Positions 5,104 to 26,645 of a stretch of 45,587 bases of DNA are shown here, in pieces. The notes beneath the pieces are model-generated. The model saw only the letters and a program-made list of their open reading frames with translations, searched no databases and had not been told where the DNA came from. The stretch lies in the NCBI GenBank assembly GCA_000697335.1, contig JNEM01009543.1:1-45587 (forward strand). Direction: 5' to 3'. The translations under genes and the position numbers were made by a program. Origin of the DNA: Conidiobolus incongruus B7586 (lineage: Eukaryota). How positions within the stretch are numbered: position 1 is the stretch's first letter; every line of letters begins with the position of its first letter.

Positions 5104-6421
5104 TAATATTACCTTGAATTTAAAATAATAGGAAATTTTTTAATTTCTGATTTTTCAAACATATTATTAGTTTGAAATAAATAAATATATATAAAGTTAA
5201 TAGGAAATTATATATTTTTAATATATATATATATATATATATTAGTTTTTTTGATTAAAAAATTAACTTTTTAAAATTGGTTGTTTAATTTAATTATGTT
5301 TAAACTAAATAGTGATCATCAAAAGTTTTTTATTTTAGTATCAGTAAAACTTAACTATAAACCCTTTAAAATTATTTAAAATTTACAAGCAGCTTTTAGT
5401 AATGAAGCATTATCTAAATCAACAATTTATCACTAGGTAAATTATTTTAAGGCTAAAAGAGAAACTATTCAAAACTTGTTAAAATCTAAAAGACTAACTT
5501 CAACTATTATTCTTTTAATTGTAAATAGAGTGAAAAAATATATTGAAAAGCACTTTTTTATTTCAGCTAGAGAATTATCTAAGCACTTTAATATTAGTTT
5601 TACAAGTATTTTATATATTTTAAAGTTTAAACTAAATAAATAAAAATATAAAACAGGTACCTTATAATTTAACTAAAGTTTAAAAAAAAGCTAGAGTAGT
5701 TATTGCTAAACAAAACTTATTGAAATATTACTAGAAGCTTAAACTTTTACAGCAAATAATTATAATTGATGAATCTTAAATCCCTATGTATAATCCTATA
5801 CTAAAACACAAATCAAGATGCTAAATTAATCTAAATCAACCCCCTTTATAAATCCCTTTAAATAAACATTTTGTTAATAAGCAAATATTAATTATTATAA
5901 TAGATTATAATAGTATATGCTATTCTTATTTAGTTCCTAAAGGAAAATCAATTAATAGTAAACTATATATTGCTTTTTTAAATAAAAGTATTTCTAATTG
6001 GTGTTCTCAATATAATTTGAGAAAACCTATTATTTTACATGATAATTGTAAAATATATAAATGTAAAGCTGTAAAAAACTTTCTAATTAAAAATAACTGG
6101 AAAAAACTACTACATCTAGTATATTCCTTTGATTATAACCTATGTGATTATAATTGCTTTAGGCAATTAAAAAACCAGCTTGCAGGAAAGAAAATTTCTG
6201 CAGGAAAATTTAATTGGTTTGTGAAACATCAAATTTCAGTCTTTAATAAGAATTGTTTTTTAGGTATTAGAAGTTTGCTAAAAGTATAGCAAAAAGTTAT
6301 TAATAATAAAAGAAACTACTAAATTTATATTATATATTTATTTTTATATATCATATATTCAAATGTTTATTTATTTTTAATTGCAAAAAATTCCCATTAT
6401 TAAAAATATAGAGTAATATTA
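5104..6421 (+). mobile_element. Full-length decayed mariner (DD34D) DNA transposon, ~1.32 kb; transposase relic 5296-6322
   Basis: Imperfect ~35-bp TIRs at 5104-5141 and 6385-6421, both with TA at the outer edge. Transposase motifs: LQAAFSNEALSKSTIYH* (HTH), KSKRL (RSGRP), VPYNLT (WVPHEL), IDES* (GDESW), HDN, HLVYSFDYNLCDY (HPPYSPDLAPSDY) and *QKVI..Y. There are 34 residues between the 2nd and 3rd Asp. Confidence 0.9.
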
Positions 6422-8690: not shown

Positions 8691-9804
8691 CCAAATTAGC
8701 TGAACTTTTGATTAATGCAATGATTTATATCCATATATAACTCTTGGTTAAAAATAAAAATATCAATATTCTTATCGAAAAATATCACTGCTTCCACATA
8801 TGACAACTATTACAAAAAATACATTTTCATTGATACTGCAAATGTTTATATAAATTGATATCTACTTAGTTAAACCTTAAATTTCATGCTACATAACTTA
8901 AATTCATCCAATTGTATTATAATAATTATATTTTGAATTTTAAATATTTGATATCTAATCAAAAAAATGCTTTATAAATCAATAATAAGTAAAAGATTAA
9001 TTAATAATTATAAAAATTTTATGATTTTTTTAAAATAAGCGTCAAATAATATATATAACTGAAACATGATTTCTGAAATATCATAATTAAAATTTAATTC
9101 AAACGTATAATTATAATATTGAAAGATAAGTAAATTGATGATGTAAATATAACATAGATTATTCATTTGAACTATTTCAACAAGAATTTTTATCATATCC
9201 AATAAAAATGCTGTTAAAAAATGTAGTAATATTTTTGAATCAATTAAATATATGATACTCAAAGTAAAATGAAATATTGTTATATATAAATAATTAGAAA
9301 TTATAGTGATTTGTTAAATTTAAATCTACAAGTCTAACTTTAAAAAAATATATTATTTTCCATTGACCACTAATTAAAATATTTTGTTCAATTTTATTAG
9401 TATAATTGAGTTAATAATATTAAATATTTAATATGTAATATTGATATTGACATAATTAAATAAGGAATATATTGATTATATTTAATTATTCTTTGTGCAT
9501 TTCCCTGCTCATAATATTATTTTGATATTGTTCAGTTTCAAATATAAAATTCATATTATTTGCAAAAATTAAACATGTATAGTATGATTAATATTGCTTT
9601 GGTTATTAGGAACATATATTCAATTAATTTGAATTCATTAATTTTATAAATATACAATAATTTTTTCTGGAATACAAAATTTTTTTGAGTAAATTATTTG
9701 TAGTCAAATCCAGTCACATGATGAAATAAATAAAAAATTGTTTCGAGTTAATTTTATAAGTCTAGTATTCTTACAACAATTATGAAATAAATTGTTTGTC
9801 TACT

Positions 9805-11378
9805 ATGCATAAATATAATGCTATTGAAGAAGAAATTCAAGCGATTGCAGCTTTGAAAGAGGGTAACAAGGTTCGCTCTGAAGAATGTGCTGCGAAGCAG
9901 GTAATAGAGAAAGTGATAAAGATACTAAAACGAGCTCGCGAATTGAGCAACAATGTGATTCTGTTAAAGCAGCAGGAGGCTTTGGAAGCTTCTGAACACT
10001 TAGACATTGTTATTAAAGCTAGTTTTTCATTCTTAGAAGCTGAGCATTCATTTTTTGATGCTCCATTCCAAGGTTGGCCAATTTGAACGGTATATCGCAA
10101 GTTGGGAGAAGTGGTGCAAAAAGAAAATGCTATTTTGGCCATAGTGTTAAAAAATTAGGATGTATCCCATACTGCAAAACTAATGTCCCTCAATTTGGTT
10201 TATCAACTGAAACTGCTAATCCTGTATTTGGCGCTACCAATAATCCATATAATCCTGCATTTACCAGTGGAGAGAGCAGTGACAGTGAATGAGCATTAGT
10301 TAGAGCTCACAGTCCTATTCTCGAAATCGGAAGCGACTGAAGAAGTAGCCTGGGAATCCCAGGTAGTTTTTGTGAGAGCTATTCATTGAAACAAACTCCT
10401 GGAAAATTCCCAATAACTGGTAATCACAATTATCTCTCAGGTCAAGAGTCGACACTTACGGTACCAGGTCTAATGAGGAAGAGTGCTGACTATTTAGAGA
10501 CAGCATTTCGAAATATGCTTAAGTCTGAACCTTGAAAAATAAATCGCGAGTCAATTAAAATTCTTTACAGACAATTGGAGTTATCTAAAATAGACACAAT
10601 AAGATTGGATGTGTTGTAAATAATCAACTATTTTTGCAACTCCTGCTTGTGAATGAGCAGATTTGGTAGTCAAATTATTGAGAAGTCATTGTCGTGAAGT
10701 ATTTGAATTTAATTTACCTGGAATGGCTAATGCCTATAGGTTAGCGGCATCAATTCTAGCTGTACATGATCTAGAAAATGCAAAATAATTCGTGGAATGG
10801 AATGAGCCATACTTCTGAGTGAAAGTTGTACTCATTAGAAGCTTTGAAATTCTGAATTTGGTGATTCAAAGTTTTTATTTGGTTCTTGCCAGTATTTCTG
10901 GAAAAGGCTTTAAGTGATATTTTCAACTTTGTAGTACCCCTATACGTTGTCGAATTGAGGAACCATCAAGAGCAAAACAATCTTTGGGTGCTTGGAATAA
11001 CACAGGCCTTGATGGTAATGGGAAGGATATTTAAATATTGCCTGCAGTCGTATTGCTTCCTTAAAAGTATAACAATTTCATTTAGGTTAGTCCATGTCTC
11101 CAGCCTATCATGAATTTAAATATGCTCAACTATTCCAGTGAAGCGATTCTTGTGACTAGAGTAGAAGCTAATTTAAACAGATTGAATGAGACTGACCAAT
11201 GGTCGTAGAAGTTGCAAAAAATTATAAAGGAGGAGCTTGGGCACAGATTTTATGGTATTCACTTTATGATATTAATTAAATGACTGTGTTATTAATAGGA
11301 ATTCGAATTGTAGGCACAGAATCCGAATATGAAAGAACCTAAATTACTATGAGGTATATTGATGTTTTGATATTATAA
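9805..11378 (+). pseudogene. Amidase pseudogene, middle member of the tandem array
   Basis: Collinear with both flanking amidases (LGCIPYCKTNVPQFG, FTSGESSDSE*, IGSD*RSSLGIPGSFC, LNYSS, MRYID). Many stops, frameshifts and deletions. Confidence 0.92.
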
Positions 11379-12355: not shown

Positions 12356-13999
12356 ATGAAAAATCAAAATTCAATTGAAGAAATTCAAGAACTATCAGCT
12401 TTAGAAGTAGCTAACAAAATCCGCTCGAGGAATTGGACTGCTAAAAAAGTGATGGAAACAGTGATTCAGATGACGGAACGGGCTAACGCATTTACCAACA
12501 GTGTAATTCTTCTGAAGGAACAGGAGGCGTTAGAAGCCGCTGAACGTTTGGATATCGATATTCAAGCTGGGATTTCATTTCCTGAATCCGAGTATCCTTT
12601 TCTGGGAGTTCCGCTATCAGTGAAAGATTCCTTCCATGTTAAAAATTGGCCAACTTGGGGCGGTTATCAGAGGTTAGGAGAGGTTGATCAACAAGAAGAT
12701 GCTACAATTGTTGCATTGTTGAGACAGTTGGGATGTATTCCCTATTGTAAAACTAATGTACCTCAATTTGGATTGACTACTGAGACCTCTAATCCAGTGT
12801 TTGGTGTCACTAAGAACCCTTATAATCCTGAGTTTACTTGTGGTGGAAGTAGTGGCGGTGAGGGTGCTCTAATCGGTGCGAGAGGCTCCATTTTGGGAAT
12901 CGGTAGTGATTCAGGAAGTAGCTTGAGAATTCCTGCGAGTTACTGCGGGATCTATTCGTTCAAACCAACTGCTGGACGATTTCCAATGGCTGGTCACTTT
13001 CGATTCTCTTCGGGCCAAGATTCGATTTTGACTTCTCCAGGGCCTATGGGTAGAAGTGTGGATGACCTTGCAGCTGTATTCCGTCATGTTATTCAGTTAA
13101 AACCTTGGGAAATTGATAGTGACAGCACTAAAACACCATATGAACCATTTCAATTTACTAAAGAGAAACGTTATAAGATTGGATATATTGTCAGCAATGG
13201 TGTATTCCCTTCGACTCCAGTATGTGAACGAGCGGTGTTAGAAGTGGTTGAATTATTGAAGAAAGAGGGACATGAAGTATTTGAATTCAAGATACCTGGA
13301 GCAGCTGAAGCGTACAAATTAGCTGGAGCTATCTTAGTATCGGATGGCTTAGATAATGCAAAGCGATTTATGACTTGGTCTGAATCGTATACTTCCTTAA
13401 TCTCACCATTAGTTAGAGTCCTTCAAATTCCAAACTTTGTCAAGAAATGTTTGCAGTATGCACTGGCAAATTTCTTGGGACAGAAGACATATAGCGATTT
13501 ATTGACCTTTTCAATCCTGCCAACTGTTGCCAAGTTATGGAATTATCAAGAGCAAAAGAATCAATTGGCGAAAGAAACTTTGGATGCTTGGATCAAAACT
13601 GGGGAGAAAGATGGCCATCAAATGGATGTATTAATATGTCCTGTTTCTGTATCACCACCCCAAAAACACGATACCTTCATTGCTATCAGTCCGTCGCTGT
13701 GGCCCTGTATGATCTTTAATTTATACAATTATCCAAGTGGTGTTATTCCTGTGACTAAAGTTGATGCTGATTTGGATCGAATGGATAATGTCAATCAATG
13801 GCTGAAAGAGAAATTACCTAAGGATTATAATAGAGGTTATTGGGCGCAAAAATTATGTTATTCATTTTATAATAGTAAAGAAATGGCAGGTTTACCTATT
13901 GGTGTTCAAATCGTGGGTAAGAAATCGAGTGATGAAAAGGTTTTAGAGTTTATGAAGTATATAGATAGTTTGGTTAAATTTGATCACAAATATAAATAG
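12356..13999 (+). CDS. Amidase-signature enzyme (FAAH/acetamidase-like), 547 aa, intronless paralog
   Basis: GVPLSVKD, GGSSGGEG, GSDSGSSLRIPASYCG and GLPIGVQIV. Same length as 7047-8690 and collinear with it. Confidence 0.95.
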   Translation: MKNQNSIEEIQELSALEVANKIRSRNWTAKKVMETVIQMTERANAFTNSVILLKEQEALEAAERLDIDIQAGISFPESEYPFLGVPLSVKDSFHVKNWPTWGGYQRLGEVDQQEDATIVALLRQLGCIPYCKTNVPQFGLTTETSNPVFGVTKNPYNPEFTCGGSSGGEGALIGARGSILGIGSDSGSSLRIPASYCGIYSFKPTAGRFPMAGHFRFSSGQDSILTSPGPMGRSVDDLAAVFRHVIQLKPWEIDSDSTKTPYEPFQFTKEKRYKIGYIVSNGVFPSTPVCERAVLEVVELLKKEGHEVFEFKIPGAAEAYKLAGAILVSDGLDNAKRFMTWSESYTSLISPLVRVLQIPNFVKKCLQYALANFLGQKTYSDLLTFSILPTVAKLWNYQEQKNQLAKETLDAWIKTGEKDGHQMDVLICPVSVSPPQKHDTFIAISPSLWPCMIFNLYNYPSGVIPVTKVDADLDRMDNVNQWLKEKLPKDYNRGYWAQKLCYSFYNSKEMAGLPIGVQIVGKKSSDEKVLEFMKYIDSLVKFDHKYK

Positions 14000-19284: not shown

Positions 19285-19772
19285 AGGGTTATTTATTTGG
19301 AATTATATAATCCAACATATATTATTCTTAATGAGTTTTTCAAACAAAATTCCAAGTTACGTATGCTATTCCATTAAATATATTTATCAGCTGTCGATAA
19401 TTTGACCAAATCCATTGCTGATCTTTAACTGTAAGAATGATTGTCAGTTGGAGAGGAAAAAAGTTTTTTATAAAGGAATTGTCTTATCCTCAACTTCAAT
19501 GGTAAACAGCTAATTTAATAGAATTTAATATTATATATGATAAAAAAATATAAAAACTATCAATTAATAATCTGCCAAAACCAATATGAAAAATAAAATT
19601 TTTGAAAGCTAGTAGAATTTATGTTATTAATTTATTTTAATTCGATTGAAATTTTGTCATTTTAGAAACATCTTTATAAACTTCATTTTGAGTGACATAG
19701 ATAATGGGACCATATTACATTAAGTTATCAATAATAATATGTTTTTTATTGATTTAAATATTTAAACTTTTT

Positions 19773-20765
19773 CTATTTTTGAATTTTCAAAGAGAAATCA
19801 ACGGGAGTGACACCATAATTTAATCCACTCATACTGATAATATCGATATTGGGGCCAAAATAAGAGGTAATATTGTCAATATTAATACCTCCAGAAGCTT
19901 CCAACAAGAAGTTGTACCTGCCCTTATATTGCTCCTTCAAAGATTTGGCGACTTGGTGCAATTCGGGCGGTGAAATATTGTCCAACATGATGATATCAGC
20001 ACCACTTTCAATAGCTTCTTTGGCTTCTTGTTCGGAACCGACTTCGACGTCGATCTTCATACTGAAGCCACCAACGCTCTTGGCGGCTTGGACGGCTTCT
20101 GTGATACTACCGCGACTCCAAATGTGGTTGTCTTTGAGCATGATCATGCTACTGAGATCCATACGATGCATGTCACAGCCTCCAACTAACATACCATACT
20201 TTTCAACGAGACGGAAACCGGGCGTAGTCTTTCTACTACCAGCAATCACACCTTGAAATCCTTCCTTTTCCTTAAGAGCGGTAAATTTGCGGCATCTAAC
20301 CAAAAAATCAACACAAATTTTAAAATCTAAATAAAATAAACTTACTGAGTTGCGATAGAACTGCATCTGCCAAAAATATTGAGAGCTAATCTCTCGCCAA
20401 TTAAAATATCTTTACATTGACCAGTAACTTTAGCGACGGGTACCTTCTTAGCACCAAACTGTTCAGGATCAATAACAGTACCCTCTTCATAGTGCCATTC
20501 AACTTTGCAGTTAGTCAAGCGGAAGACTTCGTTGAAGAATGGAATACCAGCTAATACTGACTATTTCCCAACCCATTGTTAATTTTGATACAATTATTTA
20601 TGTTGATATTTTACTTACATAACTCTTACAATATAAAACAGCGACTTCTTGTTTGACACCGACTACAAAACCACCATAGTCTAAAGAAGGGATATCTTCC
20701 TGTAGCCAATTCGCGATAGTTTGATGCCATTGAGGTGGTAATAAATGTTCGTATTGTTTACTCAT
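19773..20765 (-). CDS. BNA6: Nicotinate-nucleotide pyrophosphorylase (quinolinate phosphoribosyltransferase), 3 exons
   Basis: [57 protein letters not shown] and EASGGI. Confidence 0.97.
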
Positions 20766-21992
20766 ATTTATAATAATTATTATTATTTTGTTTTTTTTAT
20801 ATTATTCCCAAAGTTGAAATCATCCATATATAATCAATGTGGTTATTTATTTTAATTATGGGATTGATATTTGAGGTCTTAAGAACAGTCCATTATAAAA
20901 TTATTTGGGAAATTTTTTAAATGATATCTGCTATTAAAAATCAACCTTGCCAAATAAAAAGTATGAGTCTTTACATGTTGAATTACGAAAAAATTGGAAA
21001 ATATAGAGGTATTAACTATATATTCTTAATACTTCGATTAGACTTGAATTATTACTAATAAAGTTTAGTAAACTTAGAATTTAGTTCGATGAAATTAGAG
21101 TATACCATATCAATAAATAATATTATTGTTATATAACTACAACACACAATATTAAAAATAAGTTGGGACTGAATTTTGAGAGAATAATAGATTAATCAGG
21201 ATATTAAAAAGATAGGGATACTGAGTCAGATGATATTTTCTCGAAGTTTAGTAATCACAATTCAACATTGAACTTATATTGCTAATTTCAAATGATATAA
21301 TTTTATAGATAATGTGGCAATTATTTGAAGTGCAATTAATTAAATATAATGAAATAATATATGTAAGAGAATTTTTATTAATTAAACTAAATATTTCTAA
21401 TTTCATTTGGATTGAATCTAATATTGAGGTATATTTATGATCTAAATAAACTACCAGAGGTTTTTAAATATATAGTGATAATTTTTACAAACTCTAGCTG
21501 ATAAATATTTGGCTTCATGTTGTGTAATTTAAATATGGCAAAATTAGAATCTTTTAGTAGTTGATATGTTAATACTCATCATATGGTATTTTAAAATAGA
21601 ATATATTCATGGTATAATGATATTTGGTTGCTCATGTTGGAAAAAAATTCTAGTAAATTAATCAGAGAGATATTAATAAATATTCTCATATTCTTTTTAA
21701 ATCATATATAACATTAAATTTAACAATCGTATGTTAAAAATATTTTAAATTTACTGCTTCTCAACTATCAAGCTTAAATAAAATTTATTTTTCAATTATG
21801 AACCCATTTAAATTCTTTAACCATTCCCGAAACTTCCAATGATTCTGAGCACGCCTATCAATATTTAATTAAGGCCGAGATAAACTATCACTTGCAACAC
21901 AGATTTTTGGTTATTGTTTTACAATAATGTTTAATTTCAAAAAGTACAGCAGCAAATACACTATTACCGTCTTCAGTCAAATATGAGCAAAT

Positions 21993-22560
21993 ATGATTAT
22001 TCCTGCTTCTAAAATTCAATATTTTACAATCTCATCAACAAGTCTTAAACATTAGAATAGAACAGAAAAGATTAAAACCATATGAACTTTAGGTAAATTC
22101 AAGTTTCACCCAGTTTCCAATATTTGACAACTTCTCAATCAACCTAAAAAGCCACGCCCGACCTAGAAACTTACGATACAAGAGTCTCTTTGAAACGTCA
22201 AAATTAACACCTTAAAAAAGCTTCCCGAATATGAAATCGTGTGATATATTAGATTGAAATTTAGCCTCAAATCAAATAGTTTTTATATTTATTAAAAAAT
22301 TTTATAAACGGATTATTCTCTAAAATTATTATTATTTTGAAAAACATTGTTGTTAACAATTTAAATTCCATAGGTTCATCTTTAAAAAACTATCACATAA
22401 CTAATAGTTTTGTTAAATCCACAAAAAGCATGATTTAACAAGGGAACTTAAAGATTACTTTTTAAAATATCTAATTATTTTATAACTAAGATTAATTAAA
22501 TATATTATACAAAAATGAAGAAAATAAAATACAACATAAAAAAAGACATTAAAAAATTTC
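21993..22560 (+). pseudogene. tnpA: IS607-type TnpA (MerR-like HTH plus serine recombinase) relic
   Basis: MIIPASKIQYFTISSTSLKH*NRTEKIKTI*TLG (HTH; LRRW..GKI..RTPG), TRVSLKRQ at 22178-22201 (YARVSS..Q, catalytic Ser), PEYEIV*YIRLKFSLKSNSF (DIGSGLNFKRKGF), LL..INGLFSKIII, FIFKK..LIVL and ELKD..NYFITKIN. Confidence 0.8.
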
Positions 22561-22569
22561 AAAAAACTG

Positions 22570-24098
22570 ATAGAAAAAAAACAAAATTAAGCTGTTTCCA
22601 AACCTTAACAAGAAGATATATTGATAGAACGGTTTAGAGTAATAAACTAGACTTATAATCAATATTTCAGAATGGTTGACAGGAGTAAATAAAATAAATT
22701 AAAAAACTAATATCAAATATGTAAATATAAAAAGCTCAAAGGATGAAATCTAGTTGGTATTAGAAATTACTTATATTTAAACATAACAATACACAACTTC
22801 CTAAAAATATAAAGACCAATTTTATCACTCACAAGAAATAATATAATATAAAAGTATATAAAATTAATTTGAGTTATTATTAATTTTAATTACTAGATAA
22901 AAAATGTTTTCCACTATGCCTATTTTAATAGCAAGCTAATTCAAACAACTAGACCATTTCCAGAAAAGCTCAATTATAGTTATTACCTTTAAATGATAAA
23001 ATTTGTTATAGATATTAATTGTGATATATTTCGTTTTGAATTTATTTTATGTTCATTTTATCACATTTAATCATATTTTACTGATATATAATATTGAATT
23101 CATATTTTAAAATATTTAATTATTCAATACTATACCCTTAAGTATTATATAATTTATTTTTTGATTATTGTAAACTTAATACCAATACCTTATATTGTTG
23201 AATTAACTTAATATTTTTATGTAAACTTATAATAAAGATATTTCATTATTTTTAATTAATCTAATTATTAAAAATTACAAATATAAAATTAAATAATCAT
23301 AATTGATATTATCTTCCTCTACATATAAATTAAATATCCATATTATTCTATTATTATTAAACTTCAAGAACACATTTTGATACCACTAAAAATTAATTAA
23401 GATAATAAAGCTTTTTTGTGAAATATAAAAAAAGAATTTTAGATTTTGATCCAAACATATAATCTTTTACAACTAATTACTCTTTTTTAATTAGATTGTA
23501 ACTTGAGTAAAAAAGATATTGAGAGAATTCATTGTTTCTATTTTACTTATAATAAGTTATAAATCAGATAATCTTAAAGAAATCTACTAAGGAAAATATT
23601 ACAAAATCAGAAAATAAATCCAAAACCTTCTGGATAAGGTATGTAAGAAACTTAGCAAATTGATTAATAAAAAAATGCATAATTTTACTTTAATTGGAGA
23701 CTGAAAAAATGGGGAGAAAAGCTAGTAAATGGATTGAGAGTAAAAGTATAAATGTAATGTTAAGATGGTTTTATTACAGATTTAAATAATACTTACTCAA
23801 CCAAATAAGAGAATACCTTTAGTGCGAGTTAATCATCTGTGATAAGCATTATATAAGCAAAACATGTGGTAATTGTGGATATTTGCATATATAACCTTGA
23901 TCAAGCAAGACTTTCAAGCATCTTCAATGTTATGTTGAGATGAATCAAAACGCCAATACTGCTAGAAACACACTCTCTCACTATTTAACAGTCAATCGAG
24001 CCAGCCTTTCAACATTGGGGTTGGGGCTTACTCCATTGGGATCTCTAGACTCTATGCAGGATTTGGACAATTTTAATTGTGAGCGATATCTAAGTTAA
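22570..24098 (+). pseudogene. tnpB: Fanzor2/TnpB RNA-guided endonuclease relic
   Basis: KIKLFPN..QEDILIERF..*TYNQ, VLEITY..FLK..KTNF, PFPEKLNY, RuvC-I LDFDPNI*SFTTNYS (23442-23483), IQNLLDKVCKKL, RuvC-II IILL*LETEKM, MLRWFYYRFK*YLL..REY, Zn finger SKTCGNCG (23856-23879), RuvC-III NQNANTARN (23943-23969). Confidence 0.9.
23004..23372. mobile_element. ~370-bp insertion in tnpB, probable solo LTR
   Basis: TnpB homology stops at ~23003 and resumes at ~23375. The insert begins TGTT, ends AACA and contains AATAAA. The TSD is only partial (aaatt/cattt). Confidence 0.45.
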
Positions 24099-24118
24099 AA
24101 TAAATCAATAAAATTGAT
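23985..24118 (+). ncRNA. Candidate omegaRNA (right-end RNA) scaffold plus flanking guide of the Fanzor2 element
   Basis: GC-richer segment directly after the RuvC-III codons, with hairpin GGGG-CTTA-CTCC (24023-24034). Abrupt return to AT-rich flank after ~24098. This is the position expected for TnpB/Fanzor guide RNAs. Confidence 0.5.
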
Positions 24119-25418
24119 TATAAAAATATATTGAATAGAAACCTCAATCTGGTTCTAAATTCCTTGCCATAGATTTTATATTGTCATTTTAAAATACCTA
24201 AATTGATATTCTGTTGTGAAGTCAAATGATTCAAGTCTTTAGTTACATATGAATGAAAAAAAATAATGGCAAAGAGAATTATTATTTGATTGAAAATGAT
24301 TTTTAATTCATTAATTATCAGATAAGTATATTTCACAATATTGATTAATATATGGTTAATTGAATTTGAAATATGCTAGAATTAATTGTTTTATAGATGA
24401 TTGAAATGGGATATAGTGTAATTAAACCATACTAAAGTAATTTAACTAATAAATTTTTATAAGATTGTCATCGTCTGCTTTATACTCTATTAGTAATTAT
24501 TTTTTTTCAAATTCATAATATTAACTTGATACCAGCAATGAAAGTTATTAAAAAAAATTAGAATTAAGTTATAAATTTTAATTTATCAAGAAACCTAGAT
24601 ATCCCGCAAATTTCCTTGAATAATTTGAAGACCAATAGTAAATGTAATAATATATTTTGGACTTTTGACTCTTGTGAAGATTAGGAAATTTGGTCAAATG
24701 TATAATCTGATTATCCACTTCACTATTTCCCAAATTTAGTACCAGGGTTTATCGGAATAAATGGTTAGAATGTTATAAAACAAATTTTTTACATTATCGA
24801 AATTAATAATATCATTAGTATAATTTGTTAATTTATCCCTATTTTCATATATTCAAATTAACTGGCTGTTTTTTATGATATTATTTTTAAAGTATATGGA
24901 ATGTTGTTATAATTTAGAGTTAATTTCAATAGTTGGTAAGGGATAAAATATGAGAATAATAAAAATGGAAAATTTTCAAATCCTGAGGGAAGCTAATTAT
25001 TCCATTAATATGAAGTAATAAATTAATTATACAAAAATCATAGCCTTATCATGCCAGTATTATATTTAGTACTATCTATGATATATTATCCTAAGCTTAA
25101 ATATAGTTTTAAATTCCATCCTTTTAATATGACAATAAATGGACTGAGATGAAGTAAGTCTGAAATATCTCTGGCTCGATTATTGATTCAAAAATTTTGA
25201 GACTGAAGTGAATTTCAAGTTTGATAACAATTCTCATAATCTAAGTGATCTGGAAAAGTGTTAGATGAGTGAAAAATGAGCCAATCAAATGTTAAAGACA
25301 TTTTATTTGATAAATTCGAGTTGTTCAGTGCATGAGATTTTATTTGAAAATGGGTTTCAAGTGCTTCAATATAAATAGATTTCCATTGACAAAATTTAGT
25401 GTATGATTAATATAACCA

Positions 25419-26645
25419 ATGATTCCCTCATCTCCCGTTCATAAACAATGGTCTCCTCAAAACGATGTATACTGTGAAGATGTAGTCCAAGAGTTTTCCA
25501 CTCTTTTAGGTGCTGAAATGTATGTGGACTTGACTAAACTACGTCAGATTTCTAGATATGGCATCCCCGACGAATTACGTGGGGTAAACCTTGATGGTTT
25601 TTTTTACAATGAACTTCTTGACCAATAATCATTTTAGGATGTATGGAAGTATTTACTCAAAGTTGAAAGCGCTGATAGAAGTAACATTCATCTATTGTAC
25701 TATATATTATGAACAATTATTAAATATTTTATTTAGCTAATGATATGGAAACTTATAAGCTCAATGAAGCGGAATACTTTCAACTTAGACCTCAAACCCA
25801 TGAATATACTAACAAGATACGTGGTGAAGTCAGTCGACTTCAAAATAGAATACAAAAGGTTCTCCCTAGCAAGTTATATGAAGATGTTATTGGAGCATAC
25901 TTGAACTATAACAAGCAAGCGGAATTTAATCCAAGTTGGGTTCATCTCTGTACACCTTTTGTGTTGGTATTAGAAAGAGAAGTAGAAGTATTTTATTGCT
26001 TTAAGAACCTAATGCAAATAATAGGTATTATATTTAAGATCCACTTGGCTCAAATTAGATTAATTTAATATCTAGACGATTACTTCTATACAAACCCCTT
26101 GGAAATACAGCTCACTCGCTTCCAAACTTTATTCCGAATGTTAATACCCGATTTGTAATATTTTTGATATATTCCAATTGTAATAAAATTACTAAAATTA
26201 CTAATATTTTATAGAAATGATTATTTTGAAGAAGAACAAGTGTCAATATACGAATGGACTACATCTTGGTTAACGAATTTATTCGCCAAAGAAATGCCCC
26301 CTGCGACACTAATATCTCTTTGGGATTTATATTTTGGAACTACCAATTTTATGGATCTTCATTTATATATGTGCATAGGTAAACTTTATCGGTATACTAT
26401 CTTGAACTAATATTTATACTATTTTGTTATAGCTATCTTACAGCAAAATCGAGAAAGGTTAGAAGAGTTAGAAAATTCAGAAATTAAGGCATTTTTATCT
26501 AGACTTCCAGAAATGGATATATTTACGGTAGGATATTTTATTCTATTATCTTGATTGTTGTTAATATGTGGTATTCTATTAGATCCGTCAAATTGCTACA
26601 GATCTTCAGCACCAAGCAATGGAAACATTAGCTGACCAACTTTGA
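25419..26645 (+). CDS. Rab-GAP TBC-domain protein, multi-exon
   Basis: DLTKLRQISRYGIPDELRG|DVWKYLL, EVFYCFKNLM, IPDL..YFEEE, W..W..LF..LWDLYF and HLYMCI|AIL. Confidence 0.85.

Follow-up and report, generated by a model that had tools for sequence, protein, structure and literature searches.

Fanzor2 genes have been found in IS607-type elements, those of four yeasts included (PMC3627910, available part), and Fz2 proteins are described as broadly distributed in fungi (PMC10432273, available part). The part of the 2013 report on IS607 in eukaryotes that was available (PMC3673617) gave no evidence of transposition there, and multi-copy Fanzor2 loci were reported later (PMC10530073, available part). 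As far as the accessible text of PMC6188088 describes them, IS607 elements are moved by TnpA alone, which binds repeated end motifs, and have neither TIR nor TSD; the crossover dinucleotide in the elements of that study is GG. Fanzor2 works with a right-end RNA that contains a pseudoknot, has a D-E-D triad and cleaves DNA beside a TAM (PMC11832414; PMC10530073, available part). The Fanzor fingerprint consists of a RuvC-I DPG together with a Glu that has moved to just before the zinc finger (PMC10711439, available part).

The locus described here lies within a 45,587-nucleotide stretch of DNA (the window). We consider it highly probable that it is a dead eukaryotic IS607-type transposon of ~2.26 kb (~21820-24083), in which a broken serine-recombinase gene is followed by a broken Fanzor2 gene, and which probably spread in a fungal genome long ago and has decayed neutrally since. 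This reading is backed by the presence of both decayed genes in order, by placement in the Fanzor clade, by the loss of two of the three catalytic residues and by many diverged copies. The element is of a known kind and is one among many decayed copies in what is likely a fungal genome. Like the eukaryotic IS607/Fanzor2 elements in the available parts of PMC3627910, PMC3673617 and PMC10711439, it has a recombinase gene and then Fanzor2 on one strand, a eukaryotic host, the motif D...TS..C4 zinc finger...RD (decayed here) and no detected TIR. Unlike them, the copy here is fully pseudogenised, carries a ~350-bp insertion and has relatives scattered as a family that counts diverged pieces in the tens. 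The features of the locus are as follows.

19773 to 20765, minus strand: BNA6-like quinolinate phosphoribosyltransferase gene, left neighbour, several exons (PF01729, E 3.7e-53; PF02749, E 1e-13)
21820 to 21992, plus strand: left-end non-coding region, border between ~21790 and ~21825 (sibling contig depth)
21993 to ~22520, plus strand: decayed IS607 TnpA, with an N-terminal DNA-binding part, RVS at ~22181, a gap of ~7 codons and a C-terminal helix, with many stops and frameshifts (profile and decay-aware alignment)
22574 to 23022, plus strand: 5' part of Fanzor2, HTH/WED/REC region (31.7 bits versus at most 17.8 in 92 other windows; with the L001 piece, 38.6 versus at most 18.7 in 94 other windows)
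23023 to 23373, no strand: insertion of ~350 bp, 14% GC, splitting the nuclease gene (23025-23373 by P0002, 23023-23373 by the close-clade profile)
23374 to 24011, plus strand: 3' part of Fanzor2, RuvC and zinc finger (PF07282, HMMER matches, close-relative profile)
23998 to 24083, plus strand: right end and 3' non-coding remnant, likely the omegaRNA scaffold, overlapping the last nuclease codons (likeness to the L001 3' region)
25416 to 26410, start approximate, plus strand: TBC-domain (RabGAP) gene, right neighbour, several exons (PF00566 on two exons)

The earlier note on this DNA had drawn attention to a gap without an entry among the open reading frames, and the gap is indeed devoid of ATG-initiated frames of at least 100 aa (20366-25745) and of stop-to-stop frames of at least 70 aa (21464-25415). 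The first exon of the BNA6-like gene was read off the sequence and has no Pfam match by itself; in the PDB the BNA6-like exon comes closest to 3c2e, which we take to be the yeast enzyme. For Nsp1, another protein of the window, the nearest clusters have Ascomycota as the commonest phylum. The multi-exon neighbours and a contig that spans the element (from runs that may be the assembly's own source) show that the host genome is eukaryotic, and the host is likely fungal.

To recover the nuclease gene we aligned across frameshifts, scoring codons by a model of decay that is rich in transitions and whose rates were chosen by hand. Using a profile of 15 close relatives, 360 codons were aligned between 22574 and 24011, 121 of them identical to the profile consensus, across 20 stops, 7 frameshifts and one 351-bp insertion; the score of 174.3 bits compares with at most 18.4 in six DNA shuffles and at most 21.2 with six column-shuffled decoy profiles. 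The series of motifs from KIKLFP to NQNANTARN that had been read through the stops lies entirely on the plus strand, in order and over three frames, and exceeds chance (KIKLFP ~22583, *TYNQ ~22645, PFPEKLNY ~22954, DPNI*SF 23448, and in the 3' half ILL*LET 23682, W.YYRFK ~23766, SKTCGNCG ~23856 and NQNANTARN ~23943). The same text had counted ~385 codons after removal of a 370-bp insert: the insertion is real, but it measures ~350 bp and 360 codons align, a length of ~388 being reached only if the count runs from 22583 as far as the stop at 24096. The insertion at 23023-23373 has no terminal inverted repeat beyond the chance level (212 of 300 shuffles score as high). It is unlikely to be an intron, its aligned borders not being GT..AG; read by eye, a cut at the nearest GT..AG would bring in one more codon and a stop.

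Library searches agree with the alignment in the 3' half. With stops replaced by X, 23682-24095 scores 26.7 bits against PF07282, for which the Pfam cut-off is 26.3; the zinc-finger piece was the sole match of Pfam and NCBIfam on single frames. When 23694-24095 was compared by HMMER with 1.84 billion proteins, 1270 matches were obtained at E<=0.001, 221 of them at E<=1e-10 and the best at 2.6e-40. The best protein match, P0001, shows 60% identity in this search; in the 3' part of the gene 71 of 118 residues are the same. The earlier note had named the absence of any TnpB or Fanzor profile match as a sign against its reading; PF07282 lies above its cut-off, and the close-relative profile matches at the 174.3 bits given above. 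Word-based protein searches with both decayed pieces gave no match, nor did a scan of viral contigs with the nuclease piece of the window.

For placement among TnpB and Fanzor proteins, the RuvC region was aligned in 117 rows, leaving out rows of fewer than 85 columns (P0004 among them) and loci in which no open frame matched (L001, L003 and L005 among others); from a set of 80 GTDB loci, 20 were tried, of which 17 entered the alignment. A shifted Glu is present in 99 rows, a canonical Glu in 17, and the window has neither. In a 33-row IQ-TREE phylogeny P0001, P0002, L002 and P0006 form a group with the window at UFBoot 97, within a 25-row alternative-Glu clade that holds no canonical-Glu prokaryotic TnpBs and has UFBoot 89, in trees that included no pro-Fanzor (cyanobacterial) or Fanzor1 rows; FastTree gave the equivalent 100-row clade a support of just 0.675. 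This placement is in keeping with the name Fanzor2 under which the nuclease had been introduced. Over the aligned RuvC columns, identity to the window is 61% for P0001, 48% for P0006 and 37-39% for P0002 and L002. The majority of the near relatives come from metagenome contigs; two that can be named are P0006, which is CAG8449213.1 of Scutellospora calospora, and P0004, which is RHZ56817.1 of Diversispora epigaea (Glomeromycota). Canonical prokaryotic TnpB (IS200/IS605, IS607) and Cas12f have the PF07282 zinc-finger domain in common with the window and gave weak PDB matches. The canonical TnpB rows (GTDB, n=17 kept) show the canonical Glu in 17/17 and DPG in 0/17, the best of them being ~22% identical to the window. 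The best PDB match of P0002 (E 1.4e-14) is ApmFz2 of Acanthamoeba polyphaga mimivirus (PDB 9B0L), which the window piece matches weakly (E 0.0073). ApmFz2 shares with the element the IS607 context with TnpA and, as judged from the element's relatives, the rearranged triad (Asp324, Glu467 and Asp501 in ApmFz2; PMC11832414). The mimivirus nuclease is active and has 5'-GGG as its TAM and a 247-nt omegaRNA, whereas here the Glu and the third Asp are lost and the recognised 3' region is ~90 nt long.

The locus had earlier been called a complete IS607-type element in a text that itself offered no recombinase for it; a decayed TnpA was found upstream of the nuclease in a separate search. We used a profile of 120 proteins that are relatives of the L025 TnpA, which itself passes NCBIfam NF033518. 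The best six-frame domain for this profile in the entire window is at 21996-22154 (i-E 0.0075). In decay-aware alignment the profile scores 26.3 bits, compared with at most 16.1 in 40 shuffles, 15.1 in 40 decoys and 17.4 in 110 other windows; the L001 TnpA scores 34.4 bits, compared with at most 16.0 in shuffles, 15.7 in decoys and 22.0 in 168 windows. The Ser of the RVS motif is presumably the catalytic one. Single frames of TnpA have no match in Pfam or NCBIfam, the TnpA piece matched no structure in the PDB, and a plain amino-acid frameshift aligner scored 15.6 against a shuffle maximum of 15.1. The evidence for a TnpA relic upstream of the nuclease thus appears good but not overwhelming, since coding windows scored close to it (30.8 versus 31.9) before a local background was applied and the standard libraries are blank. 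Of 240 loci retrieved, 15 have a TnpA match, in 13 cases on the nuclease strand. The overlap of the tnpA and tnpB frames is clear in L001; in the window the N-terminal frame of Fanzor2 scores 11.8 bits there, equal to the shuffle mean of 11.8. The L001 TnpA has a 100-nt GT-AG intron, whereas none is seen when the window is aligned to the spliced L001 TnpA.

DNA of the element occurs in four runs of one sample, which are not independent of the assembly because they may be its source. On 21700-24250, run X1 has 134 contigs, of which 5 are at least 99% alike, 6 are 95-99%, 25 are 90-95% and 98 are below 90%. The proposal that this lineage hosts, or hosted, its own family of the element is borne out by these many diverged copies. 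The letter at 21877, in the left end, is shared by 37 contigs, and a letter in the zinc-finger region by 20, counts that the presence of two haplotypes may have doubled. Among the sibling pieces listed (8, a further 169 being unlisted), lengths are 130-180 nt, differences 16-21% and depth that of a single copy; mid-element there is little sibling cover at 80% likeness, and no long, close or intact sibling is present among the run X1 contigs listed. At least three contigs combine the left end with the nuclease region, with joints at 21925->23844, 21941->23830 and 21941->23536. We did not adopt internal deletions as the explanation, as the letters between the joints are not known. A second, shorter version of the locus, on a contig of 1169-1466 bp that joins 21582 to 24157, may be free of the element. 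Runs X5 and X7, which carry the same species label and are from other samples, had no contig matching the locus, which is no proof of absence.

The sibling copies also define the left border. Their depth is 8.9 over 21700-21785, then 314 and 532 in the following two bins, and then 17 toward TnpA, placing the border ~170 nt before the TnpA start. The earlier note had given the element as 21967 to 24098; its start is instead near 21820 and its end likely at ~24083. The excess of the left segment over the TnpA region behind it could mean that the IS607 genes sit inside or beside another repeat, the abundant 21820-21955 being the end of a eukaryotic transposon with Fanzor2 as cargo, as in the 'Fanzor2*' case in the available part of PMC10711439. 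The left segment also lacks significant likeness to the right end. We regard this as unlikely. A TnpA relic is present, and loose-end consensuses, which continue to resemble the window beyond 21843 on the left and beyond 21951 on the right, match it by eye behind 21924 and 21951 up to the TnpA start. A comparable motif, TTCC(C/T)AGAA, occurs three times in L005 upstream of its own TnpA, which we treat as a lead only. Nor do the ends show the inverted repeats that such a transposon might have: their inverted likeness is reached by 211 of 300 shuffles, although the borders are approximate and decay could hide repeats.

At the other end of the IS607-type transposon, 23998-24088 resembles the 3' region of L001 with a score of 76 that was reached by 0 of 300 shuffles; likeness to L002 is marginal (48 versus a shuffle maximum of 47) and to L003 weak (9 of 300 shuffles). 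In four L003-family loci mutual likeness ends after ...TTGTAGAG, and because the window has the matching ...TTGTGAG at 24083, the right end was placed there, which is its likely position. By eye, relatives have repeated short T-rich motifs ahead of the right end, and they end in GAG. No stable fold is predicted for the 3' region of the window (z -0.83), compared with z -3.2 for that of L001, and the one Rfam match, to an irrelevant snoRNA (E 2.9), lies outside the element.

The active site has decayed as well. The RuvC-I Asp is retained at 23448, where DPN is read in place of DPG, and the RuvC-III Asp has become Asn at 23949. The zinc finger (23865, 23874, 23919 and 23928) reads C-C-H-C: three of its four Cys are kept, and His stands in place of the third. 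ILL*LET had been taken for RuvC-II; this assignment has to be given up, because in all 81 long relatives (380-700 aa, from 160 proteins) the catalytic Glu is shifted to a position adjoining the zinc finger, where the window has Lys (AAG at 23844). DPG is present in 72 of the same 81 relatives and in 91 of the 93 alternative-Glu rows that have RuvC-I, compared with DP in 0 of 15 canonical TnpB rows that have RuvC-I. The canonical column of the window is also without Glu, so its Fanzor fingerprint is inferred from its relatives. Relative to P0001, treated as ancestral, C>T or G>A accounts for 24 of the 36 inferred single-base changes. RIP is not supported as their source, since they fall in every sequence context and the dinucleotide indices are marginal. 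With 20 stops, 7 frameshifts and two catalytic residues lost, this copy is dead several times over, as had been claimed.

A loss of the Glu before the family spread would give a different history, in which an ancestral Glu->Lys change produced a nuclease-dead RNA-guided DNA binder that was kept by the IS607 element and has many left-end-bearing derivatives. Such proteins would resemble prokaryotic TldR, which are said to be nuclease-dead RNA-guided repressors. No letter restoring Glu at 23844 was found among the 40 difference rows listed, in which 23821 and 23837 do appear, but 51 more rows exist. One TpG>TpA transition would explain the loss, and its context class is the commonest among these changes (12/24). 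P0001, the closest relative, retains both Glu and Asp, and two sibling contigs have G at 23949, consistent with Asp (eleven have T at 23919). We therefore hold a nuclease-dead spread to be very improbable.

Continuity with the flanking DNA was examined on contigs of the same runs. A 3703-bp contig of run X1 covers 20728-24430 with 0 differences and takes in the opening codons of the BNA6-like gene; the greater part of this interval is also present in three X4 contigs. Contiguity with the BNA6-like gene, which the earlier note had asked about, is thereby seen; for the TBC gene no such link on one contig was seen, as the spanning contig ends at 24430 and none of the contigs listed reaches that gene. 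The note had also raised a chimera: the spanning contig gives no sign of chimerism, with the reservation that its run may be the assembly's source. Contamination, or a chimeric join, with DNA of bacterial or giant-virus origin is a scarcely credible source of the segment, even though most near relatives are from metagenome contigs and DNA of the element was found in one study only, since the difference-free contig and the X4 contigs tie it to the host gene, many diverged copies with differing flanks occur in the same run, the element has 21-26% GC versus 22-23% in host intergenic DNA, and its twenty stops are at odds with a contaminant that is alive.

For the decayed IS607-type transposon we propose the following history. 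By analogy with known elements, TnpA would have attached to the two ends and transposed the element through serine recombination, leaving no target duplication, while Fanzor2 would have loaded the right-end RNA with a guide taken from the right flank; the ancestor of the nuclease likely cut DNA under RNA guidance. Prokaryotic TnpB cuts empty alleles and thereby retains its element, and we assume that Fanzor2 did the same here, which would have favoured retention. Judging from its right end, which seems to finish in GAG, the element could possibly have used a TAM other than 5'-GGG. Later decay would have introduced base changes, chiefly C>T and G>A, as well as frameshifts and the ~350-bp insertion, and the present-day copy is predicted to be inert.

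The locus adds one lineage to the known spread of IS607/Fanzor2 elements in fungi. Among the literature matches listed, none pairs Fanzor with the name of an early-diverging fungal lineage, and the supplements of PMC10432273, PMC10530073 and PMC10711439 may list this lineage. There is modest evidence that the element multiplied in a fungal genome, from the dozens of diverged pieces and the possible element-free version of the locus. Screening for a further compact RNA-guided nuclease, perhaps with another TAM, could start from a consensus of assembled copies or from an intact relative, P0151 for example; the gain would be incremental because hundreds of intact relatives already exist. P0151 has an open frame of 566 aa, in contrast to the broken copy of the window, and P0001 and P0002 retain the catalytic residues within their coverage, whereas the window has lost two. 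P0001 also shares an unusual C-terminal tail with the window.

Across positions 19500-26500 of the window, contigs assembled from sequencing runs of one sample reached approximately twice the depth in the gene regions that they had over the element-bearing stretch, and paired contigs differed from each other by 7-13%. Together, the depth ratio and the divergence of the pairs suggest a two-copy genome, which would be heterozygous, hybrid or duplicated.

The sequence to the right of the element also occurs in a second form. Positions 24157-24430 of the window are matched by a 1466-bp contig of run X1 and a 1169-bp contig of run X4; the alignment shows 37 differences, besides 17 gap letters. At a joint with the same depth as these contigs, 24157 is connected to an anchor of 43 letters whose last position is 21582. 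Since at most approximately 845 bp separate the anchor from 24157 in the alternative version, as against 2574 in the window, this shorter version may represent an allele or homeolog that lacks the element. The anchor is, at 43 letters, short and AT-rich.

As regards the ends of the element, a TTCC(C/T)AGAA-type motif is found three times, in part as an inverted pair, at 57-155 of the related locus L005, approximately 100-200 nt upstream of the TnpA gene. A like motif lies at 21824 in the window and in the loose ends of the siblings (diverged element copies on X1 contigs), approximately 170 nt upstream of TnpA, and is a possible end motif. One sibling contig carries approximately 25 extra letters at window position 24067 whose translation, compared by eye, matches the last residues of P0001, the closest Fanzor2-clade relative; the window copy has therefore likely lost approximately 20 nt close to its right end.

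The IS607 TnpA of the related locus L001 contains a 100-nt GT-AG intron (250-349). Once it is taken out, the TnpA frame is restored, as is the N-terminal frame of Fanzor2 that overlaps it. In two further loci TnpA lies on the strand opposite to the TnpB/Fanzor gene:

L030, 1186-1815, TnpA
L082, 2233-2784, TnpA

Other features of the window are:

5852-6289, stop-free stretch of 145 codons
37212-38051, minus strand, Cys-rich ORF of 279 codons
7047-8690, 9766-11100 and 12356-13999, two amidase ORFs and an apparent broken copy

The stop-free stretch is likely a Tc1/mariner-type relic, judging from a weak DDE_3 match that falls below the cut-off (E 0.002). The Cys-rich ORF is hydrophobic in its N-terminal part and had no match in a Pfam search. 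PF01425 was found on two intact 547-aa amidase ORFs, between which sits an apparent broken third copy, as judged by eye.
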